Counted from the stretch's first letter, positions 1,199 to 31,664 are shown. The stretch: DNA of 64,000 nucleotides from Candidatus Nealsonbacteria bacterium (GCA_016186485.1 JACPLN010000002.1:1548-65547), one strand, 5' to 3'. Notes: generated by a model not told the origin, from the sequence alone. Numbers and translations: made by a program.

Positions 1199-1206
1199 AA
1201 ATTATT

Positions 1207-1944: not shown

Positions 1945-1953
1945 AATACTTTT

Positions 1954-2493: not shown

Positions 2494-2496
2494 GGC

Positions 2497-3504: not shown

Positions 3505-3543
3505 TTTAAAAATATCCTGATATAATAGATGGGTTAAAGGAGG

Positions 3544-3667
3544 AACCGGGAGTTGAGGGCCAAGGAATTTCACTTAGCCGGATAGTCTGGCGCGAGCGAG
3601 ACTGCTCCTCGGTGAAGTTCTAAACTTTACGTTCTTACACTAAAGTGTCGGCCCTCAACTCCCGGTT
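3544..3667. repeat. 124-bp element bounded by perfect 18-bp inverted repeats (AACCGGGAGTTGAGGGCC / GGCCCTCAACTCCCGGTT)
   Basis: Left arm 3544-3561 and right arm 3650-3667, read directly. The interior carries sub-hairpins at 3584-3603 and 3637-3648. The element starts 1 nt from the stop codon of the upstream ATPase gene. Confidence 0.8.
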
Positions 3668-13910: not shown

Positions 13911-14612
13911 TTATCCATCTATCCCAAGGTGTTTTAGGTCGCGGAATAGGCCTGTCTTGAGCCCAAAGTAGCGTTCATTGATATCGCTCGGTTTTTCCTG
14001 CAGATCAATGACTTTAATTGAGGACCAGGGCATTAAATCGCACGGAAAAGGGTGTGATACCCCGCTTACAACTATTGAATTTATCATGGGCTTAATCTGT
14101 TTTGTTATGTAGTTTCGGTGAATACCGTCCATAACCACTAAATCTTTTCTGTGCCGTTCAACGATCGGAGGAAGATAGAGCGCCATAGAATCGATGCCGT
14201 TCAAGTTCTTGCCAAAAATAAAATAGGTCCCCAATTCGCTAAGGCCGCTGGCAACTGAAAAATGTTTGAAGAGAGAAGCCACGTTTTCCACTAGAGACTG
14301 ATAGTTCTGGCGGTATACGAACCTCTGTCCTATTTTGAGTTGGCGCGGATCAAGATTTATCATTTCAATTGTGGCTTTTTTAAACACCTTTTTTCCATCA
14401 ATAGTTTTTATTTCCCGCAGAATATCCAACAACACATCAAATGGCATGGGGATTAAGGCATCGATTATTTTAATGTCCCGCAGGGGAATGACCTGTTGAA
14501 CGAGGCGGGTATCGGGAAGGTGGATTTTCTTTGCGAAATCCTCGGGACCGTCAATGTTCAGCCGCTTCCAAAAGTCTTGTACTTGTATTATCCATTCTGG
14601 CACCATTCTCAC
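13911..14612 (-). CDS. ParB/sulfiredoxin-fold domain protein, function unknown
   Basis: LYLPPIVERHRKDLVVMDGIHRNYI matches the P-I-x-V...x-D-G-x-H-R core of ParB-like nuclease/Srx domains. No HTH or other domain was recognised. Confidence 0.6.
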   Translation of the reverse strand: MRMVPEWIIQVQDFWKRLNIDGPEDFAKKIHLPDTRLVQQVIPLRDIKIIDALIPMPFDVLLDILREIKTIDGKKVFKKATIEMINLDPRQLKIGQRFVYRQNYQSLVENVASLFKHFSVASGLSELGTYFIFGKNLNGIDSMALYLPPIVERHRKDLVVMDGIHRNYITKQIKPMINSIVVSGVSHPFPCDLMPWSSIKVIDLQEKPSDINERYFGLKTGLFRDLKHLGIDG

Positions 14613-14678
14613 CTTTTAAAGTTACTAATGTCAGTATATCCAAGAAATGGAAAAGCGCAAACATGTTATAATAATATA

Positions 14679-15239
14679 ATGATTTACTTTCTTGAAGGAA
14701 AACCGGTTTTAAAAGGAAATAACTTTATTGTTTTGGAGGTCAACGGGCTGGGGTATAAAGTTTTTTTGTCCGCAAATAACCTGCAAAGGGTTGAAGAAAG
14801 CGAAAAAGCCATTAAGCTCTTTACCTCTTTGCGCTTAAAAGAAGACGCCCTTGAGCTTTACGGGTTTTTAAACCAAAAAGAGCTTGGGCTTTTTGAAACC
14901 CTGAACGAGGTTCAAGGAATCGGGCCAAAAGCCGCCTTGGTTCTTTCTTCGGTTGGCTCTCCAGAAGATTTTAGAAAGGCCATAGAAGAAGGAGACGCAA
15001 AATTCTTTGCCGGAATCAAAGGAATAGGCGCAAAAAAAATCCAGAAAATCATTTTAGAGCTTACGGGCAGGTTTAAAGAGCTTAAAAAAGAAGACAACAA
15101 GGAAACGGATGATGCATTAGACGTTTTAATCTCTCTCGGTTTTTCTCGCCAAAAAGCAAAAGAAGCCCTAGATAAGGTTTCTCTGGAAACAAAAGAAGCA
15201 GACCAGAGAGTTAAAGAAGCCCTAAAGATTTTAAGGTAG
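14679..15239 (+). CDS. ruvA: Holliday junction DNA helicase subunit RuvA
   Basis: MIYFLEGKPV...VLEVNGLGYKVF (OB domain) and HhH motifs VQGIGPKAA and IKGIGAKKIQKI. The start is taken at ATG 14679. The ORF-track extension overlaps the convergent gene. Confidence 0.85.
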   Translation: MIYFLEGKPVLKGNNFIVLEVNGLGYKVFLSANNLQRVEESEKAIKLFTSLRLKEDALELYGFLNQKELGLFETLNEVQGIGPKAALVLSSVGSPEDFRKAIEEGDAKFFAGIKGIGAKKIQKIILELTGRFKELKKEDNKETDDALDVLISLGFSRQKAKEALDKVSLETKEADQRVKEALKILR

Positions 15240-15251
15240 GGCGGTATTTTT

Positions 15252-15280
15252 TTGACAGGGTCTGAGAGTTAGGCTATAAG
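15252..15280 (+). promoter_or_regulatory. Sigma70-like promoter TTGACA-17 nt-TATAAG
   Basis: TTGACA at 15252-15257, a 17-nt spacer, and TATAAG at 15275-15280, upstream of the 15299 gene. Confidence 0.5.
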
Positions 15281-15298
15281 GAAGCAGTGGGCTGAACT

Positions 15299-15787
15299 TT
15301 GACAAAAGAAGAAAAAGAGCTTAGGAAAAAAAGGCATAGCCGTTTAATAACGGTTATTGCATTGGCAGTGGTTTCTGTTTCTTTAATTAATGTTTCTTTG
15401 GTTAACGCCTCTTTAACCGTGCTGGCCGCAGTAAATACAAACCTAGAAATCAACATTTTTTATGATACGCAGTTTCTCAGTTATCAGGTCGCTACGTTAA
15501 GGTTGCCGAAAGCTGATTTGGGCCAGGCAGGGACCGAGAAGGCCGTAAAACTTTTAAAGGAAGGATTAAACCATCTTAGGGAAGCAGAAGCTCTTTCGGT
15601 AAAATCCGATAGCGTCTTATCAGAGATGATAGAACAGCAAAAAAAAATGCGTTCAATTGAGTTTCCAATTGCGGTCGTTGCAGTATTTCTGAAGATAGAA
15701 GAGTTCAAAAAAATAACTAAAGAGGTCCAAAAAGAACTGGATCAAAGCGAGTATTATCTTTCAGAAGCCAATAAGCTTCTTGGTTAG
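15299..15787 (+). CDS. Hypothetical membrane-anchored helical protein
   Basis: TTG start, an N-terminal TM segment (LITVIALAVVSVSLINVSLV), then predicted helices. No recognisable family. Confidence 0.55.
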   Translation: MTKEEKELRKKRHSRLITVIALAVVSVSLINVSLVNASLTVLAAVNTNLEINIFYDTQFLSYQVATLRLPKADLGQAGTEKAVKLLKEGLNHLREAEALSVKSDSVLSEMIEQQKKMRSIEFPIAVVAVFLKIEEFKKITKEVQKELDQSEYYLSEANKLLG

Positions 15788-15789
15788 CA

Positions 15790-15817
15790 CCCTATCTTAA
15801 CAAAGACAGGGTTTTTT
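15790..15817 (+). terminator. Rho-independent terminator (possibly leaky, internal to the operon)
   Basis: A 9-bp stem CCCTATCTT/AAGACAGGG with one mismatch, loop AACA, then TTTTTT. Confidence 0.55.
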
Positions 15818-15894
15818 AATATTTTGCGCTTGACGAGACTTTTATTTTTTGGTAGGGTGCACAAGGAAAGCGTTCCTTGAAAAGTGAATAGGCG

Positions 15895-17274
15895 ATGAAT
15901 AAATTGAGAGAAAATAACAGGAAAGGAAAAGTAATTCTAGCGCTGATAATAATAACGATTTCGTTCTCCATATTTGCAGGCAGGACCAATGCCGAATACC
16001 CGCAGTATAGGCCGGCGCTCAAGGCCGGAACCTGGATGGAATACGAGTTCAAGTTTTATCCTGACATTGAGAGGATGCGTTTGGAGGTGTTGGAGGTAAG
16101 AGATTACGATCTTTTGCTGAAAGTCACAACTTTCTATAGAGATGGTAAAACAACAATTGAAGAAAAGTTTTTCTCCGTCGGAGTTCAAACCGAAAGAGTG
16201 GGTACAGAAGTCATAATTCCTCTTAATTCCAGCGACAATTGGCAGTCAATAAAGGGAAAAAATGAAATAAAACCAAAATCAGATCATTTAAGTCTTTACT
16301 TAACTCCAGACAGCGAAACGGGGTACAGTGAGGTATTATATTCATTTAATACTCCCCAGGGCCTTAATAAAGATTTCCTTGTGTGGATAGAGTTGGAAAA
16401 TAAAACCAAGGGCGAAAAGTATTCAATGATCTACGAAGATAAAAACGGAGAGGTTAAGGTAAAAGATTTATTCTTTTCAGAACCAGCAGATCCGAGGATA
16501 AAAGTTTATGCATACAAAGACACATCCTCGCTTACTTCTGCGCCCGGATATTTAGATTACGGAGTTAGCTCTACTGGCGTAGCGGGCATAGACTCAAAAT
16601 CCATAAGCAAAGTCAGATTTGTTTATTCCGCCAATAAAACAACAGGGATTGAAGCCAGGGAATTTAAACTTAAAGCATTCGTTTTCTATCAGAGGATAAC
16701 CGCTGATGGCGAAGAATATGTCTTCGGGACAAAAACCCATAGAATTGGAGAATTGATCTTTCCGGTAATAGGCGGGGCGCTTAAAAACCAAGAACAAATT
16801 TACCCAGACCTCAAGACATCCATTGGCGGAGAATTTAACGATTTGGTTGGGCTCAAAGACTTCAGAACTTTCCGAGACCACTTTGGCTATTTGGAATACT
16901 CAGGGCCTGTTCCGGTCAAAGGGTGGTACTGGGACAAGCAAACAGGCATACTGATAGGCTACTTTGACGCCTCCGGCACGCCCAGGAAAATTAATTTGAA
17001 AGACACGAACGCCTGGGACGGGCCGGACTTTATGGGCTCCGTTTTCGTAGAGTACCGCATTGTTGTCGGCATAATATGGGCAAATATCGGTTGGCCGATC
17101 GGGGCCGCCATTGTTTTTCCTCTATCTTATCTAGGTTTCTTTATCTACGACAAAGCCACGCGGAAAGAATTATCAACCTGGAAGCAGTGGCTGCCATGGG
17201 TTCTGATAATGTTAATACCGACAGTTGTTATGATATTATTTTGGGTATATATTTTCCCAAATATCAACAGGTGA
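15895..17274 (+). CDS. Hypothetical exported protein with signal peptide and C-terminal multi-TM anchor
   Basis: An N-terminal signal-like segment ILALIIITISFSIFAGRTNA, a long beta-rich body, and C-terminal hydrophobic helices (IVVGIIWANIGWPIGAAIVFPL, WVLIMLIPTVVMILFWVYIF). Confidence 0.7.
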   Translation: MNKLRENNRKGKVILALIIITISFSIFAGRTNAEYPQYRPALKAGTWMEYEFKFYPDIERMRLEVLEVRDYDLLLKVTTFYRDGKTTIEEKFFSVGVQTERVGTEVIIPLNSSDNWQSIKGKNEIKPKSDHLSLYLTPDSETGYSEVLYSFNTPQGLNKDFLVWIELENKTKGEKYSMIYEDKNGEVKVKDLFFSEPADPRIKVYAYKDTSSLTSAPGYLDYGVSSTGVAGIDSKSISKVRFVYSANKTTGIEAREFKLKAFVFYQRITADGEEYVFGTKTHRIGELIFPVIGGALKNQEQIYPDLKTSIGGEFNDLVGLKDFRTFRDHFGYLEYSGPVPVKGWYWDKQTGILIGYFDASGTPRKINLKDTNAWDGPDFMGSVFVEYRIVVGIIWANIGWPIGAAIVFPLSYLGFFIYDKATRKELSTWKQWLPWVLIMLIPTVVMILFWVYIFPNINR

Positions 17275-17280
17275 GAGACA

Positions 17281-19974
17281 GTGAAATTACGGAAAGAAAA
17301 AGAAAATAAAGAAGAGAATGGTCCAGACGCCGGTTTTAAAACCTATTATTGGGGAAGGCATGGGTGGTTTAGGACCGTATACCATCCCCTATTGTTATTA
17401 ACAAGTAAGCACTACAGGTTTTACCGTTTCTCTCGCTTGTCGCCGGAGAAACGCAAGAAAAAAGCCGAAAAGATGGCAAAAGGATTCAGAGAAATGATTG
17501 ATTATCCTCCGGTCGGACCAGAAGACATCATAGGCCGGGAAAAGGAAATGAAAGAACTGCTTGAAGCGATACTATATCACGTTGTCAGAGACAAAGAAAC
17601 AATCAACCGCTATTCTAAAGTTCCACCGCCAAAGATATTTCTTGTAAAAGGAAGCACTGGCAGCGGGAAAACTTTTATGGTTCAGGCGGTAATGAGAGAA
17701 GCCTTTGAAAAGGGAATTGAAAACGGCGTTATAGTCAATCTAAAAACCGTAACCGTAAACGAAATCAAGACCGTATGGCAGGCAATGTCAGCCCAGCAGA
17801 TGGCCGGAATGATAGATACCGTATTGTCTTCGCCCACAATTCTCTTTTTTGACGAAGCCCAGCAATACCTGAAAGAAGACAAGATGTCTGTCGGAAACAA
17901 CCAGGATTACACAGACGCCAAAAACGTACTCTTGCAAAAACTGGACAGGCTGGAAAGAACCAATATGAGAGGCGTGGTGATATTCTCTACCGACGAGTTT
18001 GAAGCCATTTACAGCACGGCAAGAAGAAGATCAAGGACCATAGATTTGGACCAAGGAATAAAGGAAGAATACCTTGTTGAGTGCGCCAGACGCATGTGCA
18101 AAAAATACGGCATAACCAATCTTGAGCCCGAAGCCATTGTAAATGTCTTGGGGCAGAGTTTGAGAGCCGTTGGCCAATCTTCAATAACCTTTTTTGACGT
18201 TACCGACGCTTTCAGGCTGGTCTATCACGAAAAAATCCTTAACAGAAAGGTAAAAGAAGCTGTTCTGGACGATTTTGCCGATGTGGCAAAAAGAGTAAAG
18301 GCCTACAAAGAACAGGAGGTTCCCGATGTTGTAAGGGACGCTGTTCAGGCCACTTTGCCGACCGAGAGGTACAAAGATATCGGCGGACTTCACGGCGTAA
18401 AGGACGAAATCATCAGTTCAATAACCTATTGTCTTAACCCCGAACTGGCAAAACAAGTCGGCTATCAGCCGCCCAGAGGTTTCCTGTTTTATGGCCCCCC
18501 GGGCACCGGAAAAACCCTTTTAGCTAAAGCCATTGCCGGAGAATCCAAAGCCCACTTCATAACTCTAAGCGGGCCGGAAGTATTCTCCAAATGGGTTGGA
18601 GAATCGGAGAAAGTAATGAAGAGCCTGTTTGCCAGGGCAAAGATATATTCCCCAAGCATTATTTTCATTGACGAAATGGAATCAATAGCCATGGAAAGAG
18701 GGCGGAGATCAGGAGATGCAGGAGTTTCAGAAAACGTACTGGCTGTTTTGCTGAAAGAGCTTGACGGTTTCAATCCCTTGGGGCAAGTTGTCTTCATAGG
18801 AGCCACCAACAGAAAAGACATGCTTGACCCGGCTATAATAGAAAGGCTTTCAGAACAGTACGAGTTTACATATCCTAAGACATCCAAAGAAAAGAAAGAA
18901 ATTATTGAAGTCAATCTAAACAAACCGGCAGAGCTTTTGTCAAAGGAGGTAACAATAGACTCGGTATTCAAGATATTTTTGAAAAGAACCTTTTCGCCAC
19001 GGCTAGTTGCTCAAACAATCAGCCGGGCAGTGGCTAACAGAGGCAAGGAAATCTTAGCTTGCGCGGAGCTTGTCAGGGCAACAGAAGAAAAAGATTCTTC
19101 TAAAATTTCACAGATAAAAGAAGACTTTAGTCTTGCCTTTGAAAGGCTTGATAAGGTCTTTGGCAAAGAATCCAGCGAAGAAGCCAAAATAGAAAAATAC
19201 AGAGACATAGCTAAAGCCCTTAAAGACCCCCTGTATTATACCTTGACTCTAAGGCACATAGAAGAAGCGTTTGAACAAAAAGTCAGCAACGAAAACCTTA
19301 AAGAAACAAGAGAGTGGCAAAGGATTTATCGGTCAAAGGAGCCTGAAATCGGAAAAGCTTACGGACTGGCGACAGATGCTCTTGGCCAAGTAGGAAGCAT
19401 TAGCATAGTTGAGGCAAAAACCTATCCAAGATCAGACAGGCAAGAACGGATTTTAGTCTTGGGGACAGTTGATGACTCAATTAAAGATAGCGCCAAGGCA
19501 GCTGCTGAATTCCTAAGAGAGTTTTGTCCGATTGCAGACAAAGTTGACATTGATATCCACCTTATTTCAATATCCGAAGGCGTCAGCGAAGGACAGCAAA
19601 AACCATCAGGACCTTCGGCCGGAATGGCAATAACCGTGGCTTTAGCCTCAGCTTTGGGAAGGATTTCCTTGTCTCCCGATGTCTGCATGACAGGGAAGGT
19701 AGAATTGCTCAAAGCGGTAGCCGGCGCCATAGGGGGAATCCATCCAAAGTCGGGTTCCGGGAAAATAGACGTAGCGGCAGATGAAGGATTCAAGAAAGTG
19801 ATAATTCCTCAGCTTGGATACGAATACCTGAAAAGAGACTTCCCCGACTACCTGGAAGCGGTCAGAGAACGAGGCACGAAGGTAGTTGGCGCCAAAGACT
19901 TCTTTGGCTACATGGAAGCAGCCAGCTCAATAAAGGAAGAAGAGATCAAGGAGAGATTGAAAGAAGTAATTTAA
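17281..19974 (+). CDS. Chimeric AAA+ protease: P-loop module, classic-clade AAA module and Lon (S16) protease domain
   Basis: The GTG start lies 6 nt after the upstream stop, with an AGGTGA SD. Module 1 has GSTGSGKT / ILFFDEAQQY. Module 2 has GPPGTGKTLLAKAIAGES / IIFIDEMESI / ATNRKDMLDPAIIERL. The C-terminus has PSGPSAGMAITVA and GGIHPKSGSGK (Lon Ser-Lys dyad context). Confidence 0.85.
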   Translation: MKLRKEKENKEENGPDAGFKTYYWGRHGWFRTVYHPLLLLTSKHYRFYRFSRLSPEKRKKKAEKMAKGFREMIDYPPVGPEDIIGREKEMKELLEAILYHVVRDKETINRYSKVPPPKIFLVKGSTGSGKTFMVQAVMREAFEKGIENGVIVNLKTVTVNEIKTVWQAMSAQQMAGMIDTVLSSPTILFFDEAQQYLKEDKMSVGNNQDYTDAKNVLLQKLDRLERTNMRGVVIFSTDEFEAIYSTARRRSRTIDLDQGIKEEYLVECARRMCKKYGITNLEPEAIVNVLGQSLRAVGQSSITFFDVTDAFRLVYHEKILNRKVKEAVLDDFADVAKRVKAYKEQEVPDVVRDAVQATLPTERYKDIGGLHGVKDEIISSITYCLNPELAKQVGYQPPRGFLFYGPPGTGKTLLAKAIAGESKAHFITLSGPEVFSKWVGESEKVMKSLFARAKIYSPSIIFIDEMESIAMERGRRSGDAGVSENVLAVLLKELDGFNPLGQVVFIGATNRKDMLDPAIIERLSEQYEFTYPKTSKEKKEIIEVNLNKPAELLSKEVTIDSVFKIFLKRTFSPRLVAQTISRAVANRGKEILACAELVRATEEKDSSKISQIKEDFSLAFERLDKVFGKESSEEAKIEKYRDIAKALKDPLYYTLTLRHIEEAFEQKVSNENLKETREWQRIYRSKEPEIGKAYGLATDALGQVGSISIVEAKTYPRSDRQERILVLGTVDDSIKDSAKAAAEFLREFCPIADKVDIDIHLISISEGVSEGQQKPSGPSAGMAITVALASALGRISLSPDVCMTGKVELLKAVAGAIGGIHPKSGSGKIDVAADEGFKKVIIPQLGYEYLKRDFPDYLEAVRERGTKVVGAKDFFGYMEAASSIKEEEIKERLKEVI

Positions 19975-19986
19975 AATCGACCATTA

Positions 19987-20020
19987 GGACCCAGAGAAAA
20001 ACCCTGGGCCTTTTCTTTTT
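19987..20020 (+). terminator. Rho-independent terminator after the AAA-Lon gene
   Basis: Stem GGACCCAG/CTGGGCC (7 bp with one bulge) followed by TTTTCTTTTT. Confidence 0.6.
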
Positions 20021-20048
20021 GATAGAATTTATTTATAGTTTAATAATA

Positions 20049-21251
20049 ATGGAGAATTTAATTAAGAAACTTATTCCCCCTTTTTTGTTAGACTGGTATC
20101 ATTATTGCCTTGCACTACTGGGTGCAATTTTTTATAGATTTCCTTCCAGAGGCCTAAAAGTTATTGGTGTCACCGGTACCAACGGAAAGTCAACCGTTGT
20201 AGAAATGATATCTAAAATTCTGAGAGAAGCAGAATATAAAGTAGCTTCAATTTCTTCAATCCAATTTAAAATAGGAGATAGAGTTTGGCCCAATAATTTA
20301 AAAATGACTATGCCTGGCCGCTTTAAACTTCAAAAGTTTTTAAGGCAGGCAGTTAATTCAGGGTGCCAATACGCGGTTTTGGAAGTTACTTCCGAAGGCA
20401 TAAAACAGCACCGCCACAGATTTATTGATTTTGACACAGCGGTTTTTACAAACTTGACACCAGAGCACATTGAGAGGCACGGAGGATTTGAGGAATACAA
20501 AAGAGCCAAGGGAGAGCTTTTTCAAATTACTAAAGAAACGCATATTATTAACCTTGACGATAAAAACAGCGGCTATTTTTGGCAGTTTCCGGCGAAAAAT
20601 AAGATAGGCTACAGCATAAATGATTTTTCTAAATTCCAGCCCCTGAAATTAAGGCTGTTAGGAAAATTCAATGCCTATAACGCAATAGCAGCGATTAAAG
20701 CCGGCTTATCGCAAGGGGTAAGCCTGGAAATATGCAAGAGGGCCTTGGAAAAGATGGAAGTGGTGCCGGGGAGAATGGAAACAGTCATAAAAGAGCCCTT
20801 TGCGGTAATTGTTGATTATGCCCATACGCCCGATGCTTTGCGCAAAGTCTACGAAACCTTAACCGCAAATAATCAACTAATTTGCGTGTTAGGGGCGGCT
20901 GGAGGGGGGAGGGATAAATGGAAAAGGCCCGAGCTTGGCAGAATTGCAGCCCAATATTGTGATCAAATTATTCTAACCAACGAAGACCCATACGATGAAA
21001 TTCCAGAAAAGATTATAGAAGAAATTTTTTCTGGAATTTCAACCCCAAATCTTAAAGGTCAAATCTCAAAAGTCTATAAAATTTTGGATAGACGCGAAGC
21101 TATTAGAGAAGCCCTGAAATCGGCTCAATCCGGAGATATGGTTATAATTACCGGCAAGGGGTCTGAACCGTGGATGTGCTTAGCCCGAGATATAAAAATC
21201 CCCTGGGATGACAGGGAAATTGTCAGAGAAGAAATAAAAAAGCAACCATAG
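20049..21251 (+). CDS. murE: Mur ligase, MurE-like (UDP-MurNAc-L-Ala-D-Glu:diamino acid ligase), short N-terminus
   Basis: VIGVTGTNGKST, LEVTSEGIKQHR, FTNLTPEHIERHG and DYAHTPDAL. It lacks the usual ~90-aa N-terminal UDP-binding domain and is not in a dcw cluster here. Confidence 0.8.
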   Translation: MENLIKKLIPPFLLDWYHYCLALLGAIFYRFPSRGLKVIGVTGTNGKSTVVEMISKILREAEYKVASISSIQFKIGDRVWPNNLKMTMPGRFKLQKFLRQAVNSGCQYAVLEVTSEGIKQHRHRFIDFDTAVFTNLTPEHIERHGGFEEYKRAKGELFQITKETHIINLDDKNSGYFWQFPAKNKIGYSINDFSKFQPLKLRLLGKFNAYNAIAAIKAGLSQGVSLEICKRALEKMEVVPGRMETVIKEPFAVIVDYAHTPDALRKVYETLTANNQLICVLGAAGGGRDKWKRPELGRIAAQYCDQIILTNEDPYDEIPEKIIEEIFSGISTPNLKGQISKVYKILDRREAIREALKSAQSGDMVIITGKGSEPWMCLARDIKIPWDDREIVREEIKKQP

Positions 21252-21256
21252 GTTGC

Positions 21257-22915
21257 TTATTTCTCAAGATAGGCAGGCGCAAAATCCCCGGGTTTTTGAT
21301 GAGAAAGGCTTATTGTTCTCGGTATAACCCATCTGTACAGGTTTATTTTTGAACCGGCTTTGTCATCGGTGCCGGATTTCCTCGCGCCGCCGAACGGTTG
21401 CTGGCCGACAACGGCTCCGGTTGTTTTCCAGTCGTAAACATTGCCCGCTGCGTATCGGAGCGCATCTAATCCTTCGCATAGACTGAATACGTCTTTAGTG
21501 TTTATTGCGCCGGTCAACCCATACTCGCTTGCTCTGTCACATAGTTTGAGCGTTTCTTCAAATCCATTTTTATCAAGCAAGCAGACAGTAACCACCGGAC
21601 CGAAAATCTCTTTTTTCATTGTTCGGTAGCAAGGATTTTTAGTGACAATTACGGCGGGACCAATAAACCAGCCGACAGAATTAGCGCATTCGCCGCCCAA
21701 AACCTCAATCACTCTTTCGTTTACAAAGCGATCTGTTTTTGCTGTGTTAATATATTCTAAAATCTTAGAGTATTCGGCTTCGCTGATAATCGCTCCCATG
21801 AAGTTTTTGAAATCTTTAACATCGCCAACTTTTATTAACTCAATGAATTCCATCAGTTTCGGCCTTACTCTCCGCCACATTTCTTCAGAGATATAGACTC
21901 TGGAGGTTGCAGAACATTTTCTCCCTTGGTAGCCGAATCCCCCAACGACAATTGAAGCAGCCGCTACTTTAGGGTCTTCGTCGTCGCAAACAACCAAGAA
22001 GTCTTTTCCGCCTGTTTCTCCTACAGCTGACCTGTGAGGATAGCTTTTATATGTGTTGTTTCCAGTGTTCTCGCCGACCTTTTTCACTATCCAGTTGAAA
22101 ACATCGGTGCTGCCGGTAAAATGGATGCCGGCAAGATCCGGGCTGTCAAGCAGTATTTTTCCAATCATTTCGCTGTCTCCGTTAACCACCGAAAGAGTTT
22201 CCTTCGGCAGGCCTGCTTCATAAAGGATATTAAGAATAGGGTAGAAAGCGGCAACCGTATCGCGGGCTGGTTTGCAAACAACTACATTTCCCATCGTTAA
22301 AGGAGCTGTAGGCAGGTTGCCGGCAATGCTGATGAAGTTGTTGGGCGGCAAAGCGGCGACAAATCCTTCAAGGGGCCGCCAGTCGGTAAAATTGAAGTTG
22401 TAAGGGAGAGTGTCTGGCTGTTCTTTGTAGATTAGATAAGCGTAATAGGCGTTGAAATTCCAGAAATCAACCAATTCGCATACGTCAATCATCGCTTCGT
22501 AAGGATTCTTTGAGTAGTTTTCCATTGTAACCGCTGTTAATTCATAGAAATATTTTGTCTGCAAAAGGTAAGCCGCTTTTCTGAATATGTTAAGGCGCAT
22601 GAACCAATCTAGTTCCCGCCACTTTTTTCTGGCGCACAAAACTGATTTTATAGCGTCAAAAACATGGTCGCTGTTTGCCTTAGAATATTTAGCTAAAATT
22701 CTTTGATGGTTGTGGGGAACAACGCAATCCCCAAGGTCATCCGTAACAATTTCTTCCCCGCCTATTAAAAGCGGAAGGACTGTATTTTTGGATCTTGCGC
22801 ATTCTAATTTCCAAAGCGCTTCTTTCAAGAGCATTCTTTCTTTTGTTTCCGGGGCAAAAGACACCATAGGGGCGTTTTGAGGTTTTGGGATTTCAGGAAT
22901 ACCGTCAATTTTCAA
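21257..22915 (-). CDS. L-glutamate gamma-semialdehyde (1-pyrroline-5-carboxylate) dehydrogenase, ALDH4-type
   Basis: The ALDH superfamily with VGETGGKDF, the catalytic Cys context GYQGRKCSATSR, EIFGPV, and VCELVDFWNFNAYYA (compare ELIDFFRFN of ALDH4). TTG start with AAGGTGA upstream. Confidence 0.8.
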   Translation of the reverse strand: MKIDGIPEIPKPQNAPMVSFAPETKERMLLKEALWKLECARSKNTVLPLLIGGEEIVTDDLGDCVVPHNHQRILAKYSKANSDHVFDAIKSVLCARKKWRELDWFMRLNIFRKAAYLLQTKYFYELTAVTMENYSKNPYEAMIDVCELVDFWNFNAYYAYLIYKEQPDTLPYNFNFTDWRPLEGFVAALPPNNFISIAGNLPTAPLTMGNVVVCKPARDTVAAFYPILNILYEAGLPKETLSVVNGDSEMIGKILLDSPDLAGIHFTGSTDVFNWIVKKVGENTGNNTYKSYPHRSAVGETGGKDFLVVCDDEDPKVAAASIVVGGFGYQGRKCSATSRVYISEEMWRRVRPKLMEFIELIKVGDVKDFKNFMGAIISEAEYSKILEYINTAKTDRFVNERVIEVLGGECANSVGWFIGPAVIVTKNPCYRTMKKEIFGPVVTVCLLDKNGFEETLKLCDRASEYGLTGAINTKDVFSLCEGLDALRYAAGNVYDWKTTGAVVGQQPFGGARKSGTDDKAGSKINLYRWVIPRTISLSHQKPGDFAPAYLEK

Positions 22916-24052: not shown

Positions 24053-25495
24053 ATGGTTTCTAAAAAAGACTTCCGAAAAATTAATGATTACCTATGGGAG
24101 ATTCCCAAAACCTTTAGGCACGATATGCGAGTTCCCGTCCGCGCTTATGTTTCGGAAAAAATGCTTGAGGCCAGCTTTAAAGATAGGTCTCTTGAACAGC
24201 TGGTAAATATCGCCAGCTTGCCCGGGATAGAAAAATACGCATTGGCAATGCCCGATATGCACGAGGGATACGGTTTTCCCATAGGGGGAGTAGCGGCAAC
24301 TAGGGTTTCAGACGGAGTAATTTCGCCGGGAGGAATCGGTTATGACCAAAATTGCGGAGTCAGATTGTTGAAATCAGAGCAAACAGAAAAAGAAATAAGG
24401 CCCCAGTTGGATAGATTAGCTTCAGAAATTCAAAAGGAGGTGCCATCTGGGTTGGGACGGGGCAGGCAGATAAAGCTGAGCATAAAACAGATAGATGAAA
24501 TTCTTGAAGGAGGAGCGCCAAAGCTGGTGGAGTGGGGATACGGAGAAAAAGAGGATATTGAAAACTGCGAAGCAGGAGGGAAACTTGTTCTGGCAGATGC
24601 TAATTTGGTTTCAGGTCGCGCTAAAAACCGCGGCAGGGATCAGGTGGGAACCTTGGGTTCTGGCAATCATTTCGCCGAGATCCAGAAAGTTGAAACGATT
24701 TTTAACGAAGAGGCCGCCAAAACTTTTGGGCTATTCAAAGATCAGGCGGTGGTAATGGTTCATACCGGATCTCGCGGGCTCGGCCACCAGAATTGTACTG
24801 ATTATTTAAGGACAATAGACAGAGCTATTGAAAAATATAAGATCAGGATTCCCGATAGAGAATTAGCCTGCGTTCCTTTTAATTCCCCGGAGGGCCAGAA
24901 TTTTTTTAAAGCAATGTGCGCCGGAGCTAATTTTGCCTGGGCCAACCGCCACATGATAACTTTCTATATCAGAATGGCCTGGCAGTCTGTTCTGGGAGGA
25001 AAAACAGGCCTTAAGCTTCTTTACGATGTTGCTCACAACATTGCCAAGGTTGAAAGCTATGAAGTTGATGGAAAGGAAATCGAGCTTTGCGTGCATAGAA
25101 AAGGGGCTACAAGAGCTTTGCCGCCAGGGCATCCTGAAATTCCGGAAAAATATAGAGAAACTGGCCAGCCGGTTTTGATCCCGGGTTCCATGGGAACAGC
25201 CTCTTATGTTTTGGCCGGCACGAAAAAATCCGAAGAAGCTTGGCATACTGTTTGCCATGGGGCAGGGAGAACGATGTCCCGCCACCAGGCGCTGAGGATG
25301 GTTACCGGCCAGGAGGTGATCAGAAGTTTGGCAAAAAAAGGAATTATTGTTAAGTGTCAGAGCCAGAGAGGCGTTGCTGAGGAGGCTCCATTGGCTTACA
25401 AAGACGTTGATTCTGTTGTTAATGTAGTTCATAATGCAAGATTGGCAGATAGAGTAGCAAGATTAGTTCCCCTTGCTGTAATAAAGGGTGAATAG
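24053..25495 (+). CDS. rtcB: RNA-splicing/repair ligase RtcB
   Basis: PDMHEGYGFPIGGVAA, GGIGYDQNCGVR, GSGNHFAE, HTGSRGLGHQ and CHGAGR, the complete RtcB metal/GTP-binding signature. Confidence 0.92.
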   Translation: MVSKKDFRKINDYLWEIPKTFRHDMRVPVRAYVSEKMLEASFKDRSLEQLVNIASLPGIEKYALAMPDMHEGYGFPIGGVAATRVSDGVISPGGIGYDQNCGVRLLKSEQTEKEIRPQLDRLASEIQKEVPSGLGRGRQIKLSIKQIDEILEGGAPKLVEWGYGEKEDIENCEAGGKLVLADANLVSGRAKNRGRDQVGTLGSGNHFAEIQKVETIFNEEAAKTFGLFKDQAVVMVHTGSRGLGHQNCTDYLRTIDRAIEKYKIRIPDRELACVPFNSPEGQNFFKAMCAGANFAWANRHMITFYIRMAWQSVLGGKTGLKLLYDVAHNIAKVESYEVDGKEIELCVHRKGATRALPPGHPEIPEKYRETGQPVLIPGSMGTASYVLAGTKKSEEAWHTVCHGAGRTMSRHQALRMVTGQEVIRSLAKKGIIVKCQSQRGVAEEAPLAYKDVDSVVNVVHNARLADRVARLVPLAVIKGE

Positions 25496-26880: not shown

Positions 26881-26997
26881 ATGAAAAACTACTCATCTAA
26901 GAGAGCAAAAAGAGGAAAATTAGCTTATAGGACTCCGGACCGTTTTATTTACCGAAAATGGCAAAGAACAACAAAGGATAAGGCCAGAGCTAAATAA
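26881..26997 (+). CDS. Hypothetical 38-aa basic micro-protein (MKNYSSKRAKRGKLAYRTPDRFIYRKWQRTTKDKARAK)
   Basis: Hand-translated. The ATG lies 2 nt after the ahcY stop, with a GAGGGA SD about 9 nt upstream. It overlaps the convergent elp3 stop by 8 nt. Confidence 0.3.
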   Translation: MKNYSSKRAKRGKLAYRTPDRFIYRKWQRTTKDKARAK

Positions 26998-28612
26998 TGC
27001 GCTTTACCATATAAGTATCTTTGAGTTGGTACCCCAGTTTTCTGAAGTAGGGACGAGCGCCCACGCCCGCAATAACGGCAATTTTTTTTAGGCCAGACTC
27101 TTGTTTAGCTATTTTTTCCGCCTCTTTCATTAGTTTTTTCCCCAGGCCCTTGTGCTGGGGGGATTTTGACAGGGCCGGGCCTTGGCCAATAGGATGGACT
27201 TGGCCATAGGTTTGGATTTCCCTGATAATGGCGCTATCCTTTAACGTCTGGAAAGATAGCGGAGGTTGAACCTCCGCTGGAACTCTTAATCGCAAGAGAG
27301 AAAACAGTTTAGTTCGGCTTTTGTTCTCAAAGCTTAAGAATATTTCTCTTCCGCCGGAGGCTTCGTAGTTCTCTCTAAAAAGATATATTTTTTCTTTTGG
27401 ATTGTAATCGCCCTTAACTTCTCGGCACCTGATGCATTTACAGCGCCAGCCTTCTTTAATTTGATCTTTGGCTAAATCTTGCCTAAGACTGACCGCTTTA
27501 GCGCCCCCCTCTGTTATTTTTGTGGACGGTATGTCTCTTATAACCCTTTGGATTCTGCAGTAATAAGGAATTTTCTTTTTTGCTTCTTTCAACAGTTCTC
27601 TCAATTCGTCAACATTGTATGGCTTGTACCCGATTTTATCTTTGACCCAATACAAAGGAGCTTCTTTCAACAAGGCGCAGGGGTAAATTTTCAACTGGTC
27701 CGGCTGGAAATTGAGGTTTTGAAACAATTCTTCAAACATCTTTTCATCTTTTTCCAAATTAGAACCAGGGAGATTGGGCATCATTTGGTAGCAGATTTTA
27801 AAGCCGGCATCCTTTAGCAGCTTTGTAGCTTTAATGGTTGCATCAATTTTATGGCCCCTGTTATTCAAATCAAGAACGTTATCATATGTGCTTTGCACCC
27901 CAAGTTCTACTCTGGTTACTCCCAACTTTCTTAATCTCTTAATTTCTTTAATGTCTATATAGTCGGGTCTTGTTTCTACGTTTACCCCGATTATTCTGCA
28001 TTTTGCGTTTTCATTAGCTTTTTGAAGTTTTTCTAAGTTTTCAGTTTTTAGTTGTAGTTTTTTGTTTTTTGTTTTTTGTTTTTTGTCGTAATCGTTGCAC
28101 GCCTCAAAGCACCTTTTAATAAACCAGGTTTGATATTTCTTGGGGTTGTAAGACCAGGTTCCTCCAATTATTCTTAAATCAATCTTGTCTATTGGGTGCC
28201 CGGTGTTTTCTAGCGCTTTTAATCTGTTTTGAACCTGGAGGTAAGGATCAAATTTATTTGCTAAAGCCCGCATTACGGCCGGCTCCCCATCCAAATAGCT
28301 TTTAGGAACGCCCTTCTGGGTTGGGCAGAATAGGCACTTCCCTCCGCAAGGATAAGGTCTTGTTAGGACAGATACGACTATTATGCCGGAAAGAGAACGT
28401 ATTCCCCTTGTTTTTAAAAGGTTTTCCAATTTAGCACTGGGCCCCATCATTCCTTTTTCAACTAAATTGTGATATTCTTTTAGAAGTTCGGTATTTGTCA
28501 GCAAAGGAATCCCATATTTTGCGGAAACCTTTCTTTTGAACGATTCCAAAGATTCCCTGGTTTTAAAACCGGCCTTTGCCAATTCTTTAATTGCCGCGTA
28601 TTTTATATCCAT
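26990..28612 (-). CDS. elp3: Elp3-type radical-SAM / GNAT acetyltransferase (tRNA U34 cm5 modification enzyme homolog)
   Basis: The radical-SAM cluster motif YPCGGKCLFCP, a TIM-barrel core (VELGVQS), and C-terminal GNAT HKGLGKKLMKEAE...GARPYFRKLGY. The start is taken at ATG 28612 (MDIKY); the ORF track extends to 28651. Confidence 0.85.
   Translation of the reverse strand: MDIKYAAIKELAKAGFKTRESLESFKRKVSAKYGIPLLTNTELLKEYHNLVEKGMMGPSAKLENLLKTRGIRSLSGIIVVSVLTRPYPCGGKCLFCPTQKGVPKSYLDGEPAVMRALANKFDPYLQVQNRLKALENTGHPIDKIDLRIIGGTWSYNPKKYQTWFIKRCFEACNDYDKKQKTKNKKLQLKTENLEKLQKANENAKCRIIGVNVETRPDYIDIKEIKRLRKLGVTRVELGVQSTYDNVLDLNNRGHKIDATIKATKLLKDAGFKICYQMMPNLPGSNLEKDEKMFEELFQNLNFQPDQLKIYPCALLKEAPLYWVKDKIGYKPYNVDELRELLKEAKKKIPYYCRIQRVIRDIPSTKITEGGAKAVSLRQDLAKDQIKEGWRCKCIRCREVKGDYNPKEKIYLFRENYEASGGREIFLSFENKSRTKLFSLLRLRVPAEVQPPLSFQTLKDSAIIREIQTYGQVHPIGQGPALSKSPQHKGLGKKLMKEAEKIAKQESGLKKIAVIAGVGARPYFRKLGYQLKDTYMVKRII
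28056..28087. repeat. Heptanucleotide tandem repeat (GTTTTTT)x4 on the plus strand, (CAAAAAA)-type on the elp3 coding strand
   Basis: Read directly as AGTTTTTTGTTTTTTGTTTTTTGTTTTTTGTCG. It encodes the KKQKTKNKK segment of Elp3. Confidence 0.85.
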
Positions 28613-29303
28613 GAACAAAGAATACGCCGAATATCTTTTAAATAAGACCACTCAAGATTATAACCTGATTGCCGAGGATTTTTCAAGCAAGAGAAAAGAG
28701 CCGTGGCCAGAAATCAAATTCTTATTTGATAATTATATAATACCCGGAGAAAAAGTTCTGGATTTAGGATGCGGCAACGGAAGATTTTCCGCATTTGTTA
28801 AAGATAAAAAGGCTGATTATTTCGGCACAGACGCTTCCGAAAGATTAATTGCAATTGCGAAAAGAAACTATCCGGGGGTCAGTTTCCAGGCAGCCGATGC
28901 TTTTAATCTTCCTTTCCCAAGTAATTTTTTTAATAAAGTTTACATTATCGCAGTTCTTCACCATATTCCCTCAAAAGACAAAAGGCTCCGGTTCTTGGAC
29001 GAAGCTAAGCGGGTGTTAAAGCCAGGAGGCCTGTTGGTTCTGGCGGTTTGGGAACCGCACGGATTGAATGAGTCGTTACTGCTGTTAAAATACGCGATTT
29101 TTAAGCTATTGGGCCTGTCCAAACTGGATTTTGGCGATGTTTTTGAACCTTGGGGGAAAAAAACAAATCGTTATTACCATCTTTTTTCAAAAAAGGAGTT
29201 AATATCTTTGCTCAAAGAAGCGGGATTTAGGGTTTTAGAAAACGGAATAGTAAAAAACGAAAGGGGAAACCGCCGAAACATTTATTTGGTTGTTCAAAAA
29301 TAA
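28611..29303 (+). CDS. Class I SAM-dependent methyltransferase, Trm9/ALKBH8-like
   Basis: YNLIAEDFSSKRKEPWPEI, VLDLGCGNGRFS, IIAVLHHIP, LKPGGLLVLAVWE and DVFEPW. By eye these are collinear with yeast Trm9 (recalled from memory). Confidence 0.8.
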   Translation: MNKEYAEYLLNKTTQDYNLIAEDFSSKRKEPWPEIKFLFDNYIIPGEKVLDLGCGNGRFSAFVKDKKADYFGTDASERLIAIAKRNYPGVSFQAADAFNLPFPSNFFNKVYIIAVLHHIPSKDKRLRFLDEAKRVLKPGGLLVLAVWEPHGLNESLLLLKYAIFKLLGLSKLDFGDVFEPWGKKTNRYYHLFSKKELISLLKEAGFRVLENGIVKNERGNRRNIYLVVQK

Positions 29304-29426: not shown

Positions 29427-31664
29427 TTATTGGGTGGTTTTAAAGACATCGTCTTTGGTGATTCCTTTTACGGATATTCTTTCGATTATTTCAGGGGTTA
29501 TTTCCAGGGTTTCCTTTTCCCTTATTTCTTTTGCCAAAAAATCAAGATCTTCCTTATGCTTTTGAATTATTTTCTTTGCCGTATTGTAGGCAAGGTCAAG
29601 TTTTTCTTTAATAACCGCATCCATCTCTTTAAGGGTTTCCGGTGAAAGATCTTTTATTTTAATCGATTGTCCGAGGTAGCCGGGACCAATCTGGTCGACA
29701 AAAATCCTCTGACCCAATCTATCTGTTTCCATCCCAAGGACCATTACCATTTGTTCGGCTAACGAAGAGGCCTTCGCGTAATCATCATGAGCGCCGCTGC
29801 TAATTTCTCCGGTCATTATTTCTTCGCCGATTCTACCGCCGAATAACACGCAGAGCAGGGCATTATATTCTTCTTTCGTCTGAATGAATCTCTCTTCTTT
29901 ATCTAAGAATTGATTATACCCGCCAACACCTTTGGTGGTGGGAATAATGGAAATTTTTTTAAGTAAGGGGACATCAATACCTAGCTTTTGTAAAATTATA
30001 GCTACCATAGCATGGCCTCCCTCATGAACAGAAAGCCGCAATTTTTCTTTTTCATTAAGCATAAGACTTTTTCTTTCAGAGCCTACAAGCAATTCTTCAA
30101 TTGCCTTTTCAAAATCTTCCATTTCTATCTCCTTTTTTCTTACCATGCCCGCTCTTACTGCGGCCTCATTGGCAATATACATTAGGTCAGCCCCCGTGGT
30201 TCCAGTTCTCGTTAGGCGAGCTACTTTCTCCAAATTTACAGATGGCGCCAGTTTCTTTGATTTTGTATGGATTTTTAATATTTCAACCCTGCCCTTAATG
30301 TCTGGAGTGGGCAATACAATCTTTTTGCTGAATCTGCCCGGCCTCAGAAGAGCAATATCAATGTTCTCTGGCTTATTAGTAGCGCCCAAAATTATAATTC
30401 TAAGATCAGAACCAACCCCGTCAATTTCTTTTAATAACTCATTAATGGTGTTGTTGTATTCGTTTTTAGCCCCTCCCATATCAGCATCTAAATTACCCCT
30501 TTTGCCGATAGCATCGATTTCATCAATAAACAATATCACTCTGCCGTTTGTTTTGTTTGCAACCCTCCTTGCTTTAGTAAATAATTCTCTGACTTTTTTC
30601 GGTCCAGTTCCAACAAATATTTCTACAAATCCCGATCCAGAAGAATCTATAAACGGCAGATTGCTTTCCCCGGCAATGGCTTTAGCAAGAAGAGTTTTAC
30701 CAACGCCAGGAGGACCTTCAAGAAGAATGCCTTTTGGCAATGCCGCTCCCAGAGATTTGTAATGTTCGGGTGATCTTATAAAATCAAGAACTTTTTCTAT
30801 TTCCGCCTTGGCTTCGTCTATGCCAGCCACATCGGTAAGGCCAATAGCGGGTATTTCAAATTCTATCTTATCTTCTTTTGACTCAAGATGACGATTAAAG
30901 GAAACTAGGCTAATCAGAAAGCATGCCCATGTCCCTGCGGCTGATATAAGAAAGAACCATCTATTCCAAAAATTGCTTTCGTTAACCTCTTGGGAGGTTA
31001 TCTGCCAGAAGGCAACATTGTTGTCTGTCAGGTCTTTAAATATACCATCGGAAGAAAGGAGGTCTGGTGAAACCGGGGCAACAAAATAGCCGCCGTCTGT
31101 CAATTTTCCAAATACAAATACTGGCAATAAACTATTTTCTGCCATCCCCGAACCCCTTACCGTAATTGTTTCTTTTGCCAAGATAATATTTTCTGTTTTG
31201 TTGGCTCTAATTATTTTTAATAATTCGGGATAACCGAGAAAAGCGTGTTGAATCGGTTTTGTGGCCAACATTTCCTTGTTTGTTTTCACCAAAATTTTCG
31301 CTTTAGACAAAAATCCTACAGCATCATTATTGGTTGACGGCTTATTATCTTCGGCTAGGGGCTTGAGGCTTATGTATTCTATATTTCCCCTTGAAGCCAA
31401 CCGCACTACATCGTTATAAGAGATTTCCGGGAAAACCATATTATCGGGCTCCGAAATAACCCTCCAGGATCCTATTGCCGTGAGGGCAGTAGCTAAAATG
31501 ATTAGAATAATCAGGACCCATCGGAACTTTCTTTTAGACCGAAGGGCGCTTAGTTTTAGATAGTTGGTAATTTCTTTTCTTGGTCTTAATCTCGATGTCA
31601 CTTTATACACCTTTTCAATGTACTTATTTCTTATAGCACAACTATTTATTTTGAAAAATAGCAA
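29427..31664 (-). CDS. ftsH: ATP-dependent zinc metalloprotease FtsH with an enlarged extracytoplasmic domain
   Basis: Two TM helices about 170 aa apart, AAA GPPGVGKTLLAKAIAGES / ILFIDEIDAIG / ATNKPENIDIALLRPGRF, and the zinc motif HEGGHA. TTG start, or an internal GTG. Confidence 0.9.
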   Translation of the reverse strand: MLFFKINSCAIRNKYIEKVYKVTSRLRPRKEITNYLKLSALRSKRKFRWVLIILIILATALTAIGSWRVISEPDNMVFPEISYNDVVRLASRGNIEYISLKPLAEDNKPSTNNDAVGFLSKAKILVKTNKEMLATKPIQHAFLGYPELLKIIRANKTENIILAKETITVRGSGMAENSLLPVFVFGKLTDGGYFVAPVSPDLLSSDGIFKDLTDNNVAFWQITSQEVNESNFWNRWFFLISAAGTWACFLISLVSFNRHLESKEDKIEFEIPAIGLTDVAGIDEAKAEIEKVLDFIRSPEHYKSLGAALPKGILLEGPPGVGKTLLAKAIAGESNLPFIDSSGSGFVEIFVGTGPKKVRELFTKARRVANKTNGRVILFIDEIDAIGKRGNLDADMGGAKNEYNNTINELLKEIDGVGSDLRIIILGATNKPENIDIALLRPGRFSKKIVLPTPDIKGRVEILKIHTKSKKLAPSVNLEKVARLTRTGTTGADLMYIANEAAVRAGMVRKKEIEMEDFEKAIEELLVGSERKSLMLNEKEKLRLSVHEGGHAMVAIILQKLGIDVPLLKKISIIPTTKGVGGYNQFLDKEERFIQTKEEYNALLCVLFGGRIGEEIMTGEISSGAHDDYAKASSLAEQMVMVLGMETDRLGQRIFVDQIGPGYLGQSIKIKDLSPETLKEMDAVIKEKLDLAYNTAKKIIQKHKEDLDFLAKEIREKETLEITPEIIERISVKGITKDDVFKTTQ

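Follow-up and report, generated by a model that had tools for sequence, protein, structure and literature searches.

A Cdc48-type tandem ATPase fused to a predicted Lon-type peptidase, with a coupled membrane-protein gene, in a Candidatus Nealsonbacteria genome

The protease gene and its upstream partner

We have analyzed a stretch of 64,000 nucleotides (nt) from Candidatus Nealsonbacteria bacterium, a bacterium of the candidate phyla radiation (CPR) (GCA_016186485.1 JACPLN010000002.1:1548-65547; hereafter, the window). Three open reading frames (ORFs) follow each other on its plus strand, at 15299-15787 (162 residues, TTG start), 15895-17274 (459 residues, ATG start) and 17281-19974 (897 residues, GTG start). 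The last one encodes a predicted protease composed of an N-terminal motif, two ATPase modules (D1 and D2) and a C-terminal Lon proteolytic domain (Lon_C), and the 459-residue product is a putative membrane protein. A first-pass annotation, made from the DNA alone, had described the 897-residue protein as a chimera of a P-loop module, a classic-clade AAA module and a Lon domain, in an operon with two membrane proteins. The ORF coordinates it gave, the GTG codon 6 nt after the upstream stop, the AGGTGA Shine-Dalgarno-like sequence and all the protein motifs it quoted were found as described.

The three-module architecture proved real. Pfam recognized AAA (PF00004, E=3e-54) in two stretches, the best at residues 402-530, and Lon_C (PF05362, E=4e-17) at residues 681-856, besides weak AAA_14/AAA_16 matches at residues 116-200. 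NCBIfam ranked CDC48 (220 bits) before PAN (201) and FtsH (153) for the ATPase region, and the best-scoring stretch of every Lon model was the C-terminal protease region. All whole-protein NCBIfam matches remained far under the curated cut-offs, and no Pfam or NCBIfam model covered the entire protein. When PDB sequences were searched with phmmer, the best matches were archaeal VAT and p97/Cdc48, in two stretches (E ~1e-92), with the alignment covering D2 residues 344-648. An AlphaFold model built on 45 sequences (mean predicted local distance difference test, pLDDT, of 84) comprised N-terminal helices (residues 17-70), two alpha/beta ATPase modules, a helical lid with a linker, and a Lon-type domain. 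In Foldseek, D1 and D2 together aligned over ~600 columns to p97, Cdc48 and VAT; the top PDB matches listed were all tandem-AAA ATPases, none with all three modules. Hydropathy prediction revealed no segment of transmembrane (TM) strength anywhere in the protein or its relatives. Taken together, the sequence and model comparisons showed that the protein is a member of a predicted single-chain ATP-dependent protease family, with an N-terminal motif, a Cdc48/VAT-type D1-D2 pair and a Lon S16 domain.

D2 (residues ~360-648; 18358-19224) has the features of a canonical classic-clade AAA module with its lid, as supported by PF00004, NCBIfam and the VAT/p97 alignment. It carries Walker A GPPGTGKT (405-412), the pore loop KWVG (437-440), IIFIDE (460-465) with Walker B at 464-465, ATNR (508-511) with sensor-1 N510, and the arginine finger R522. 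The established AAA+ classification separates the classic clade from the HslU/Clp/Lon/RuvB (HCLR) clade. In the model, helix 482-496 and the sensor-1 strand 503-509 are only ~6 residues apart. Because no beta-hairpin precedes this strand, D2 fits the classic clade and not that of Lon, in agreement with its best matches (Cdc48, PAN and FtsH) and with the first-pass assignment. The N-terminal P-loop module noticed earlier is also present, at residues ~80-330 (17518-18270), but it is not the generic AAA_16/STAND-like (signal transduction ATPase with numerous domains) module that had been supposed. It aligns with p97/VAT and, judging from the second PF00004 stretch, phmmer and Foldseek, is a diverged Cdc48-type, classic AAA module, D1. 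Its motifs are Walker A GSTGSGKT (124-131), ILFFDEAQ (187-194) with the Walker B DE at 191-192, sensor-1 T237-D238 and RRR (248-250). Across the family, nearly all members retain the Walker A of D1 and most its Walker B DE, along with a T-[NDS] sensor position and the RRR cluster; most members also have an M-W-Y-G pore-loop-like motif.

The Lon S16 domain (residues ~681-880; 19321-19920) matched PF05362, was modeled with pLDDT ~90, and ends shortly before the protein C terminus (...ERLKEVI). With HMMER, the serine motif SGPSAG (776-781) aligned with that of Meiothermus Lon (5e7s), and G-K828-I-D-V-A-A, which overlaps the lysine segment GGIHPKSGSGKID (818-830), aligned with the catalytic E-K-L-L-A-A. 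This alignment points to Ser779 (19615-19617) and Lys828 (19762-19764) as the catalytic pair, so that the C terminus has both the Lon_C match and the dyad. The first-pass annotation was right on the serine motif and on the lysine-bearing GGIHPKSGSGK, which it placed about 40 residues later; the predicted catalytic residue is the second lysine of this segment, 49 residues after Ser779, and not K823. K823 (of HPK) is missing from many family members. By contrast, the serine was kept in 28/28 family representatives and the K828 position in 27/28. Compared with Meiothermus Lon, five extra residues precede K828, an insertion that is family specific, measures 4-6 residues and accounts for the longer spacing of the dyad. 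The exception at the lysine position is P0138, a metagenomic protein of 858 residues with Arg at this place and a divergent serine motif (RASLG), possibly an offshoot without proteolytic activity.

The N terminus is a 75-residue helical segment with 15.8% aromatic and 27.9% basic residues (8.1% and 14.5% in the whole protein). Its motif YYWGRHGWFRTVYHPLLLLTSKHYRFYRF (residues 22-50; 17344-17430) stands in the place of the Cdc48 N domain, and was modeled as helices with pLDDT 60-75; by hydropathy it is not a TM segment. Among 104 sequences, W26 was conserved in 94, R33 in 96, L40 in 93, Y47 in 87, R48 in 90 and W50 in 80, and the segment was the most family-specific conserved element of the protease. 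We regard the motif as a candidate docking site for the partner or the membrane.

The 459-residue protein (partner A; 15895-17274) is on record as hypothetical protein HYW70_00595 of the same organism. In line with the exported, beta-rich protein with a multi-TM C-terminal anchor of the first-pass annotation, it was predicted to have an N-terminal signal or anchor helix (residues 11-29; 15925-15981; hydropathy), a beta-rich outside domain of ~355 residues and a C-terminal membrane hairpin (residues 387-417 and 435-454; 17053-17256; TM prediction). Inside the hairpin lies the basic loop YDKATRKELSTWKQWLP (residues 418-434; 17146-17196), which the positive-inside rule places in the cytoplasm. 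At the junction with the protease gene (17269-17283), the partner TGA (17272-17274) is contained in AGGTGA (17269-17274), and after a 6-nt spacer comes the protease GTG. A homologue search with the partner matched only itself, and its single-sequence AlphaFold model had a pLDDT of 40.6.

An archaeal family and its membrane-protein partners

The extent of the family was assessed by an exhaustive HMMER search with a family profile over 1.84 billion cluster representatives (clusters at 50% identity). About 25 clusters matched the profile end to end, with 530-1450 bits and 858-1261 residues, the next matches being unrelated multi-AAA proteins. The window protein reached 1424 bits over profile positions 2-904 and conformed to the profile, including the motif W..R....R.L..P.L.L.S..YR.WRF and the insertion before the catalytic lysine. 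We have also searched genomes with a degenerate DNA pattern for the D1 motif P-[PS]-[KQ]-[IVL]-F-x-x-K-G-x-[ST]-G-x-G-K-[ST]. In validation, the pattern matched once in the window (0 expected) and recovered 9/11 known loci, missing L010 and the end-cut L011. In GTDB (one genome per species) it matched 111 loci, every one with an archaeal record title, and no bacterial genome. The family hidden Markov model (HMM) found a true member at 111/111 of these loci, full length and with ~950-1250 bits where the gene was uncut.

These loci belong to Bathyarchaeia, Nitrososphaerota, Methanomethylicia, Brockarchaeota, metagenome-assembled genomes of Sulfolobales and Desulfurococcaceae, Nezha-, Mars- and Micrarchaeota, and Odin-, Hod- and Promethearchaeota; broadly, they fall into the Thaumarchaeota-Aigarchaeota-Crenarchaeota-Korarchaeota (TACK) group, Asgard archaea and one Micrarchaeota. 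The protease thus belongs to an old, widespread and essentially archaeal family that is apparently uncharacterized. The idea of a local chimeric domain shuffle had therefore to be given up, the bacterial copy being the exception. A word-indexed search, in which Cdc48 proteins crowded the candidates, had returned six full-length relatives and suggested a tiny family, a view that the profile and pattern searches corrected. Database names of the members include "AAA family ATPase," "transitional endoplasmic reticulum ATPase" and "SpoVK/Ycf46/Vps4 family." No curated family and no PDB chain was found for the N-motif/D1/D2/Lon_C architecture. Likewise, we found no paper on a fusion of Cdc48-type AAA modules with Lon_C, in a literature coverage that was incomplete, so that an earlier description is possible. 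A review of archaeal dark matter (PMC6393860) turned out to be unrelated to the fusion. The first-pass statement that no characterized family fits the protein was in line with these results.

Several variants were noted. Three Lon_C-only proteins, from L009, L010 and L011, recovered by a search with the linker and Lon_C, had raised the possibility of a natural two-gene version, and were judged to be fragments. At L009, a run of unknown bases interrupts the upstream partner gene and the ATPase part of the protease gene was left uncalled, and at L011 the gene is cut by the contig end. L010 (GCA_009787555.1, WNGP01029822.1) has, at 930-3627, a 567-residue AAA-AAA ORF overlapping a 342-residue Lon_C ORF, a split due to either a frameshift or a sequencing error; its upstream ORF encodes a small protein with three TM segments. 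P0125 (1261 residues, metagenome) contains an intein of ~350 residues in D2, directly before the sensor-1 TNR ("VVIAA" / "TNRKD"), the middle part of which resembles a homing endonuclease. The P0130 cluster (1120 residues; marine Nitrososphaerales, e.g., HJN57553.1), closely related to the window protein, has an additional C-terminal domain of ~210 residues that resembles a metallopeptidase (HEIDH, HExxH) and a degenerate D1 (Walker A GPGWGKK, Walker B EQ).

We have then examined the genes next to the protease gene. Partner-A homologues lie directly 5' of it at all six loci with upstream sequence in clade X, the clade that includes the window protein (among them L004, L005, L009, L123 and L124). 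The spacing is as tight as in the window, the two genes being separated by 4 nt at L004 and by 1 nt at L123 and overlapping by 4 nt at L005 and L124. Common to the homologues are WD..TG[IL]L, TN.W and the loop motif YD[KR]..R....[KR]QWLP. Across the family, 98 loci had at least 900 nt of upstream sequence, and at 87 of them the adjacent upstream ORF encodes a protein with an N-terminal TM segment, an outside domain and one or more C-terminal TM segments. The two genes are co-directional at 72 of these 87 loci, usually with overlapping ORFs, and divergent at the other 15. The link to a membrane protein, which the first-pass annotation had suspected, is hence strongly conserved.

Besides partner A, three partner groups were distinguished. 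Group B, with HMM matches at 64 loci, is large and archaeal and has the cytoplasmic loop DTYFKSKKE.VS..RW, which the partner-A loop resembles; group C ends in the tail KWRGWY[DE]xIDEE[DE] and group D in a basic tail. Each type presents its conserved short motif on the predicted cytoplasmic side. Partner type follows protease clade, as would be expected for interacting proteins. These comparisons showed the 459-residue protein to be a conserved and, as read from the gene junctions, translationally coupled partner of the protease. A different arrangement was seen at five Asgard loci (L025, L033, L068, L076 and L111; Odin-, Hod- and Promethearchaeota), where the protease has a 120-residue N-terminal extension and the upstream gene, ~100 nt away, encodes a protein of 176-217 residues, soluble at four loci and with a weak N-terminal TM segment at L111.

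Flanking genes and origin of the module

The genes around the module are bacterial. RuvA (163 bits) is encoded directly 5' of the 162-residue ORF and MurE (355 bits, TIGR01085) directly 3' of the protease gene; these two and UvrB (954 bits) all scored above the curated cut-offs. Assembly chimerism at the bacterial-archaeal junctions was rejected on the basis of an independent assembly (run SRR12113420) with identical gene order. A protein identical to the 897-residue product is deposited under the name "AAA family ATPase [Candidatus Nealsonbacteria bacterium]."

A neighbor-joining tree, rooted with archaeal Cdc48 and tested with 200 bootstrap replicates, recovered the family as monophyletic with respect to archaeal Cdc48 in 100% of replicates. 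The window protein fell in the long-branched clade X, again in 100% of replicates, with 46 archaeal sequences as sister group, and inside clade X it grouped with L003, L009, P0130 and P0127 in 87% of replicates. NCBI assigns the P0130 cluster to a "Nitrososphaerales archaeon," and the P0002 cluster includes fragments from Tara samples of the ocean. Since the flanks are bacterial and the copy in the window is nested in archaeal diversity, a transfer between domains is likely, and the two-gene module was, from the tree and the gene order, most likely acquired from archaea. The module has a guanine-cytosine content of 0.43-0.45 (genome average, ~0.41), and this closeness to the genome average suggests that the transfer was not recent.

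Two clade-X relatives lie on virus-like contigs. L124 (Joint Genome Institute Ga0314860_0000137, 80 kb) encodes PolB, a UvsX-like recombinase, endonuclease VII and many small ORFs, and gave strong PHROG matches. L125 (IMGVR_UViG_3300025144_000001), an uncultivated virus genome of 63 kb and the only IMG/VR match, has an HNH-endonuclease ORF (1713-2546, minus strand) between the partner gene (2288-3376, minus strand) and the protease gene. These relatives make a virus plausible, we infer, as the vehicle of transfer. At another clade-X locus, L123 (19094-22320; GCA_027320055.1, 360-kb contig), an intein-containing CbbQ/AAA_5 ATPase is followed by a VWA protein, a MoxR-VWA-type pair ~6 kb downstream of the family gene.

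Elsewhere in the window, we noted an Elp3-like gene (26990-28651, minus strand; Radical_SAM, Radical_SAM_C and GNAT), an RtcB RNA ligase gene (24053-25495, plus strand) and a PolX-type polymerase gene (52411-54156, plus strand; pol beta thumb and PHP). Genes of these types are commoner in archaea and eukaryotes, and more than one gene in the window may for this reason come from archaea. A 233-residue ORF between a P-loop kinase-like gene and ruvA (13911-14612, minus strand) had no Pfam or NCBIfam match. Ten kb from the module, a canonical FtsH (FtsH_ext, AAA and Peptidase_M41) is encoded at 29427-31664 on the minus strand. The Cdc48-Lon fusion is therefore an addition to the standard membrane AAA protease of the host and not a replacement for it.

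The small elements upstream of the module carried less weight. The 162-residue ORF (15299-15787) was also called in the independent assembly, and its product was predicted to have one N-terminal TM segment (residues 17-35). None of its matches in Pfam, NCBIfam, PADLOC or PHROG rose above noise; it shared no similarity with the equally placed ORF at L004, and had no detectable relative at the related loci. Directly 3' of it, at 15789-15819, a hairpin with a U-run forms a weak terminator-like element (RNA fold of -10.4 kcal/mol, z = -1.6; 14/200 shuffles fold as well). A terminator scan, itself at chance level in the region, did not list this hairpin, and Rfam had no match in 14000-21500. Owing to the lack of relatives and to the weak hairpin, we do not count the 162-residue ORF, which is not conserved with the module, as part of it on present sequence comparisons. 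Of the operon with two membrane proteins proposed at first, the 459-residue partner was thus retained and the 162-residue protein was not. The TTGACA-17-TATAAG site 5' of the 162-residue ORF (15252-15280) does exist, with TTGACA at 15252-15257, a 17-nt spacer and TATAAG at 15275-15280. A consensus promoter scan did not return it (G occupies position 6 of its -10 hexamer), and promoter-like sites were no commoner in the region than in shuffles (9 seen versus 7.7 expected), so the site has little weight as evidence of function and its membership of the module is doubtful.

Proposed mechanism and comparison with known systems

A working scheme can be drawn by analogy with p97/VAT, Lon and FtsH. 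In a hexamer, two ATPase rings would be stacked on a proteolytic chamber of the Lon type. Hydrolysis of ATP, which is certain for D2 and probable for D1, would drive the pore loops to unfold the substrate and thread it into the chamber, where the Ser-Lys dyads would cut it. The N-terminal motif may bind the cytoplasmic loop YDKATRKELSTWKQWLP of the partner and so tether the complex to the cytoplasmic side of the membrane. The partner would act in trans as membrane anchor and adaptor, with a variable outside domain that could serve to sense clients or to select them. Such a complex would correspond in function to FtsH or archaeal LonB, as a membrane-associated quality-control or regulatory protease that extracts and degrades membrane proteins. 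Overall, we consider it fairly probable that the module came from archaea and encodes a membrane-associated, ATP-dependent Cdc48-Lon protease for which the partner is the anchor and adaptor.

Several observations weigh against this reading. Asgard members have a soluble protein upstream instead of a membrane protein, which means that membrane association is not universal. Partners A and B aligned with an hhalign probability of 6%, over the loop and the last TM segment only, a hint that falls short of significance. In the window protein, the D1 pore-loop position reads VWQAM where the family consensus is MWYG, and with this position degenerate D1 may be unable to grip substrate. The trees were neighbor-joining only, and gene adjacency fits an adaptor and a substrate alike. 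Finally, the host already has a canonical FtsH, so that a physiological need for the fusion protease is not obvious.

The main rival, which we regard as unlikely, makes the partner a dedicated substrate. A signal from outside, sensed by its ectodomain, would expose a degron in its cytoplasmic loop or tail, the motor would extract it and the Lon chamber destroy it, a one-component switch of regulated proteolysis comparable to endoplasmic reticulum-associated degradation (ERAD) or to the degradation of anti-sigma factors. The same upstream adjacency would be expected, Cdc48/p97 are established extractors of membrane proteins, the exposed tail of group C looks like a recognition tag, and the ectodomains vary widely next to a conserved cytoplasmic motif. 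Overlapping stops and starts are, however, seen more typically between subunits of a stoichiometric complex than between an enzyme and the one substrate it acts on, so the tight translational coupling favors a complex, and no conserved regulator or output gene lies nearby. We give very little credence to the proposal of a soluble cytoplasmic quality-control protease with a functionally unconnected neighbor. It would suit a protease that has no TM segment of its own and Asgard members that have no membrane neighbor, but it must account for the upstream membrane-protein gene being kept at 87/98 loci, with overlapping frames and despite extreme divergence, and for partner types that co-vary with protease clades.

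A part in virus-host conflict, be it defense, viral takeover or superinfection exclusion, with the window copy as a mobile-element remnant, would explain why L124 and L125 lie on virus-like contigs and why a TnpB gene is found near L005. The PADLOC IetA matches could also be taken this way, but they and the IteA match cover only the generic D2 AAA, far under curated cut-offs. We have rejected an assignment as a defense system since the PADLOC and PHROG matches reflect generic AAA. One IMG/VR match stands against 111 in archaeal genomes, the archaeal neighborhoods are varied and mostly housekeeping, and between ruvA and murE no integrase or mobile-element gene adjoins the module; a conflict role seems quite improbable to us. 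Least probable of all is that the bacterial copy is a non-functional or decaying product of the transfer. Its unique occurrence in a bacterium, long branch and degenerate D1 pore loop would be understandable then, but the 2.7-kb frame is intact with every catalytic motif kept, the partner gene is likewise whole and remains coupled to it, and the composition is near the genome average, which suggests no recent transfer.

Returning to the anchored Cdc48-Lon protease, we advance tentatively a broader proposal, namely that the family is an unrecognized class of fused AAA+ proteases, the only one with a two-ring (type II) classic-clade motor in cis with its peptidase. With its dedicated membrane partner it would be a membrane-protein dislocase-protease occupying the FtsH niche in TACK and Asgard archaea, probably moved by a virus into the CPR bacterium. 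Known energy-dependent proteases either fuse one ring to the peptidase (Lon and FtsH) or keep the peptidase separate (Clp, HslUV, and the proteasome with PAN or Cdc48). A Cdc48-type double ring fused to a Lon peptidase would, if true, be a new design, and it would mean that a second lineage of ATPases took up the Lon peptidase on its own. That nearly every member is paired with a membrane protein points to an unstudied pathway of membrane proteostasis or signaling. The lineages involved (Thermoproteota and Asgard) are central to ideas on the origin of eukaryotic Cdc48 and ERAD; if the dislocase reading is true, the family would be a prokaryotic counterpart of ERAD-like Cdc48 extraction, coupled directly to degradation. 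The CPR copy and the virus-borne relatives would mean that a complete two-gene machine moved from archaea to bacteria. With orthologues in thermophilic archaea, the family could also offer a compact single-chain system for the handover of substrate from a p97-like motor to a protease.

Compared with Lon (MEROPS S16), the fusion is likewise one chain in which an AAA+ unfoldase leads directly into an S16 domain that lies at the C terminus and has a Ser-Lys dyad. The serine (GPSAG), T-G and lysine (GG...K-(hydrophobic)-x-A-A) motifs align, a hexameric chambered protease is expected, and the membrane seems to be the site of action, as in LonB. Unlike Lon, it has two classic-clade Cdc48 D1-D2 modules in place of one HCLR-clade module with a pre-sensor-1 beta-hairpin, and the family-specific insertion of 4-6 residues before the catalytic lysine. 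It lacks the N-terminal LON substrate-binding domain of LonA (no Pfam match) and the TM hairpin that LonB has between Walker A and Walker B (TIGR00764, 66 bits vs a cut-off of 517). Lon_C scored about equally on the LonA, LonB and spore-Lon models, all far under the cut-offs. Lon-like-Ms, a BrxL-like Lon relative with a single ATPase domain, a Tyr replacing the catalytic Ser and homologues in Firmicutes (PMC4864567), is a different family.

The ATPase half resembles Cdc48/VAT/p97 in its tandem D1-D2 classic AAA (VAT 5vc7 and 5g4g, E ~1e-92) and in the D2 pore loop KWVG, and would be expected to act as an unfoldase, possibly also as an extractor of membrane proteins. The CDC48_N double-psi-barrel/beta-clam N domain (PF02359 and PF02933), present in full-length archaeal Cdc48 (e.g., P0008-P0017), is absent from the window protein and from P0002-P0007, and TIGR01243 gave 219.7 bits vs a cut-off of 802.65. 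In archaeal Cdc48 and PAN, a C-terminal hydrophobic-Tyr-X (HbYX) motif serves docking onto the 20S proteasome. The fusion has no HbYX tail; its C-terminal third is Lon_C, with the peptidase in cis and not in a separate docked 20S proteasome.

With FtsH, the fusion shares a classic-clade AAA module joined to a peptidase, and it would likewise work at the membrane with an extracytoplasmic domain included in the machine. In FtsH, a single AAA ring and an M41 zinc peptidase are combined in cis with two TM helices and a periplasmic domain, whereas the fusion combines two AAA modules with a Ser-Lys peptidase, has neither a PF01434 (M41) match nor a TM segment, and leaves the membrane and outside parts to a separate partner. 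ClpAP and ClpCP also feed a serine peptidase chamber from a double-ring AAA+ unfoldase, but these ATPases are of other AAA+ clades, and ClpP is an unrelated S14 heptamer made as a separate protein, with no fusion and no membrane partner. IetAS too pairs an AAA ATPase with a protease, and D2, though D2 only, gave PADLOC IetA matches (E=1e-31); IetS is however a separate protease, none was found nearby, and the IteA model NF042959 reached 79.7 bits vs a cut-off of 510. Related by descent to Cdc48/VAT in its ATPase half and to Lon in its peptidase, the fusion fails the defining tests of each system.

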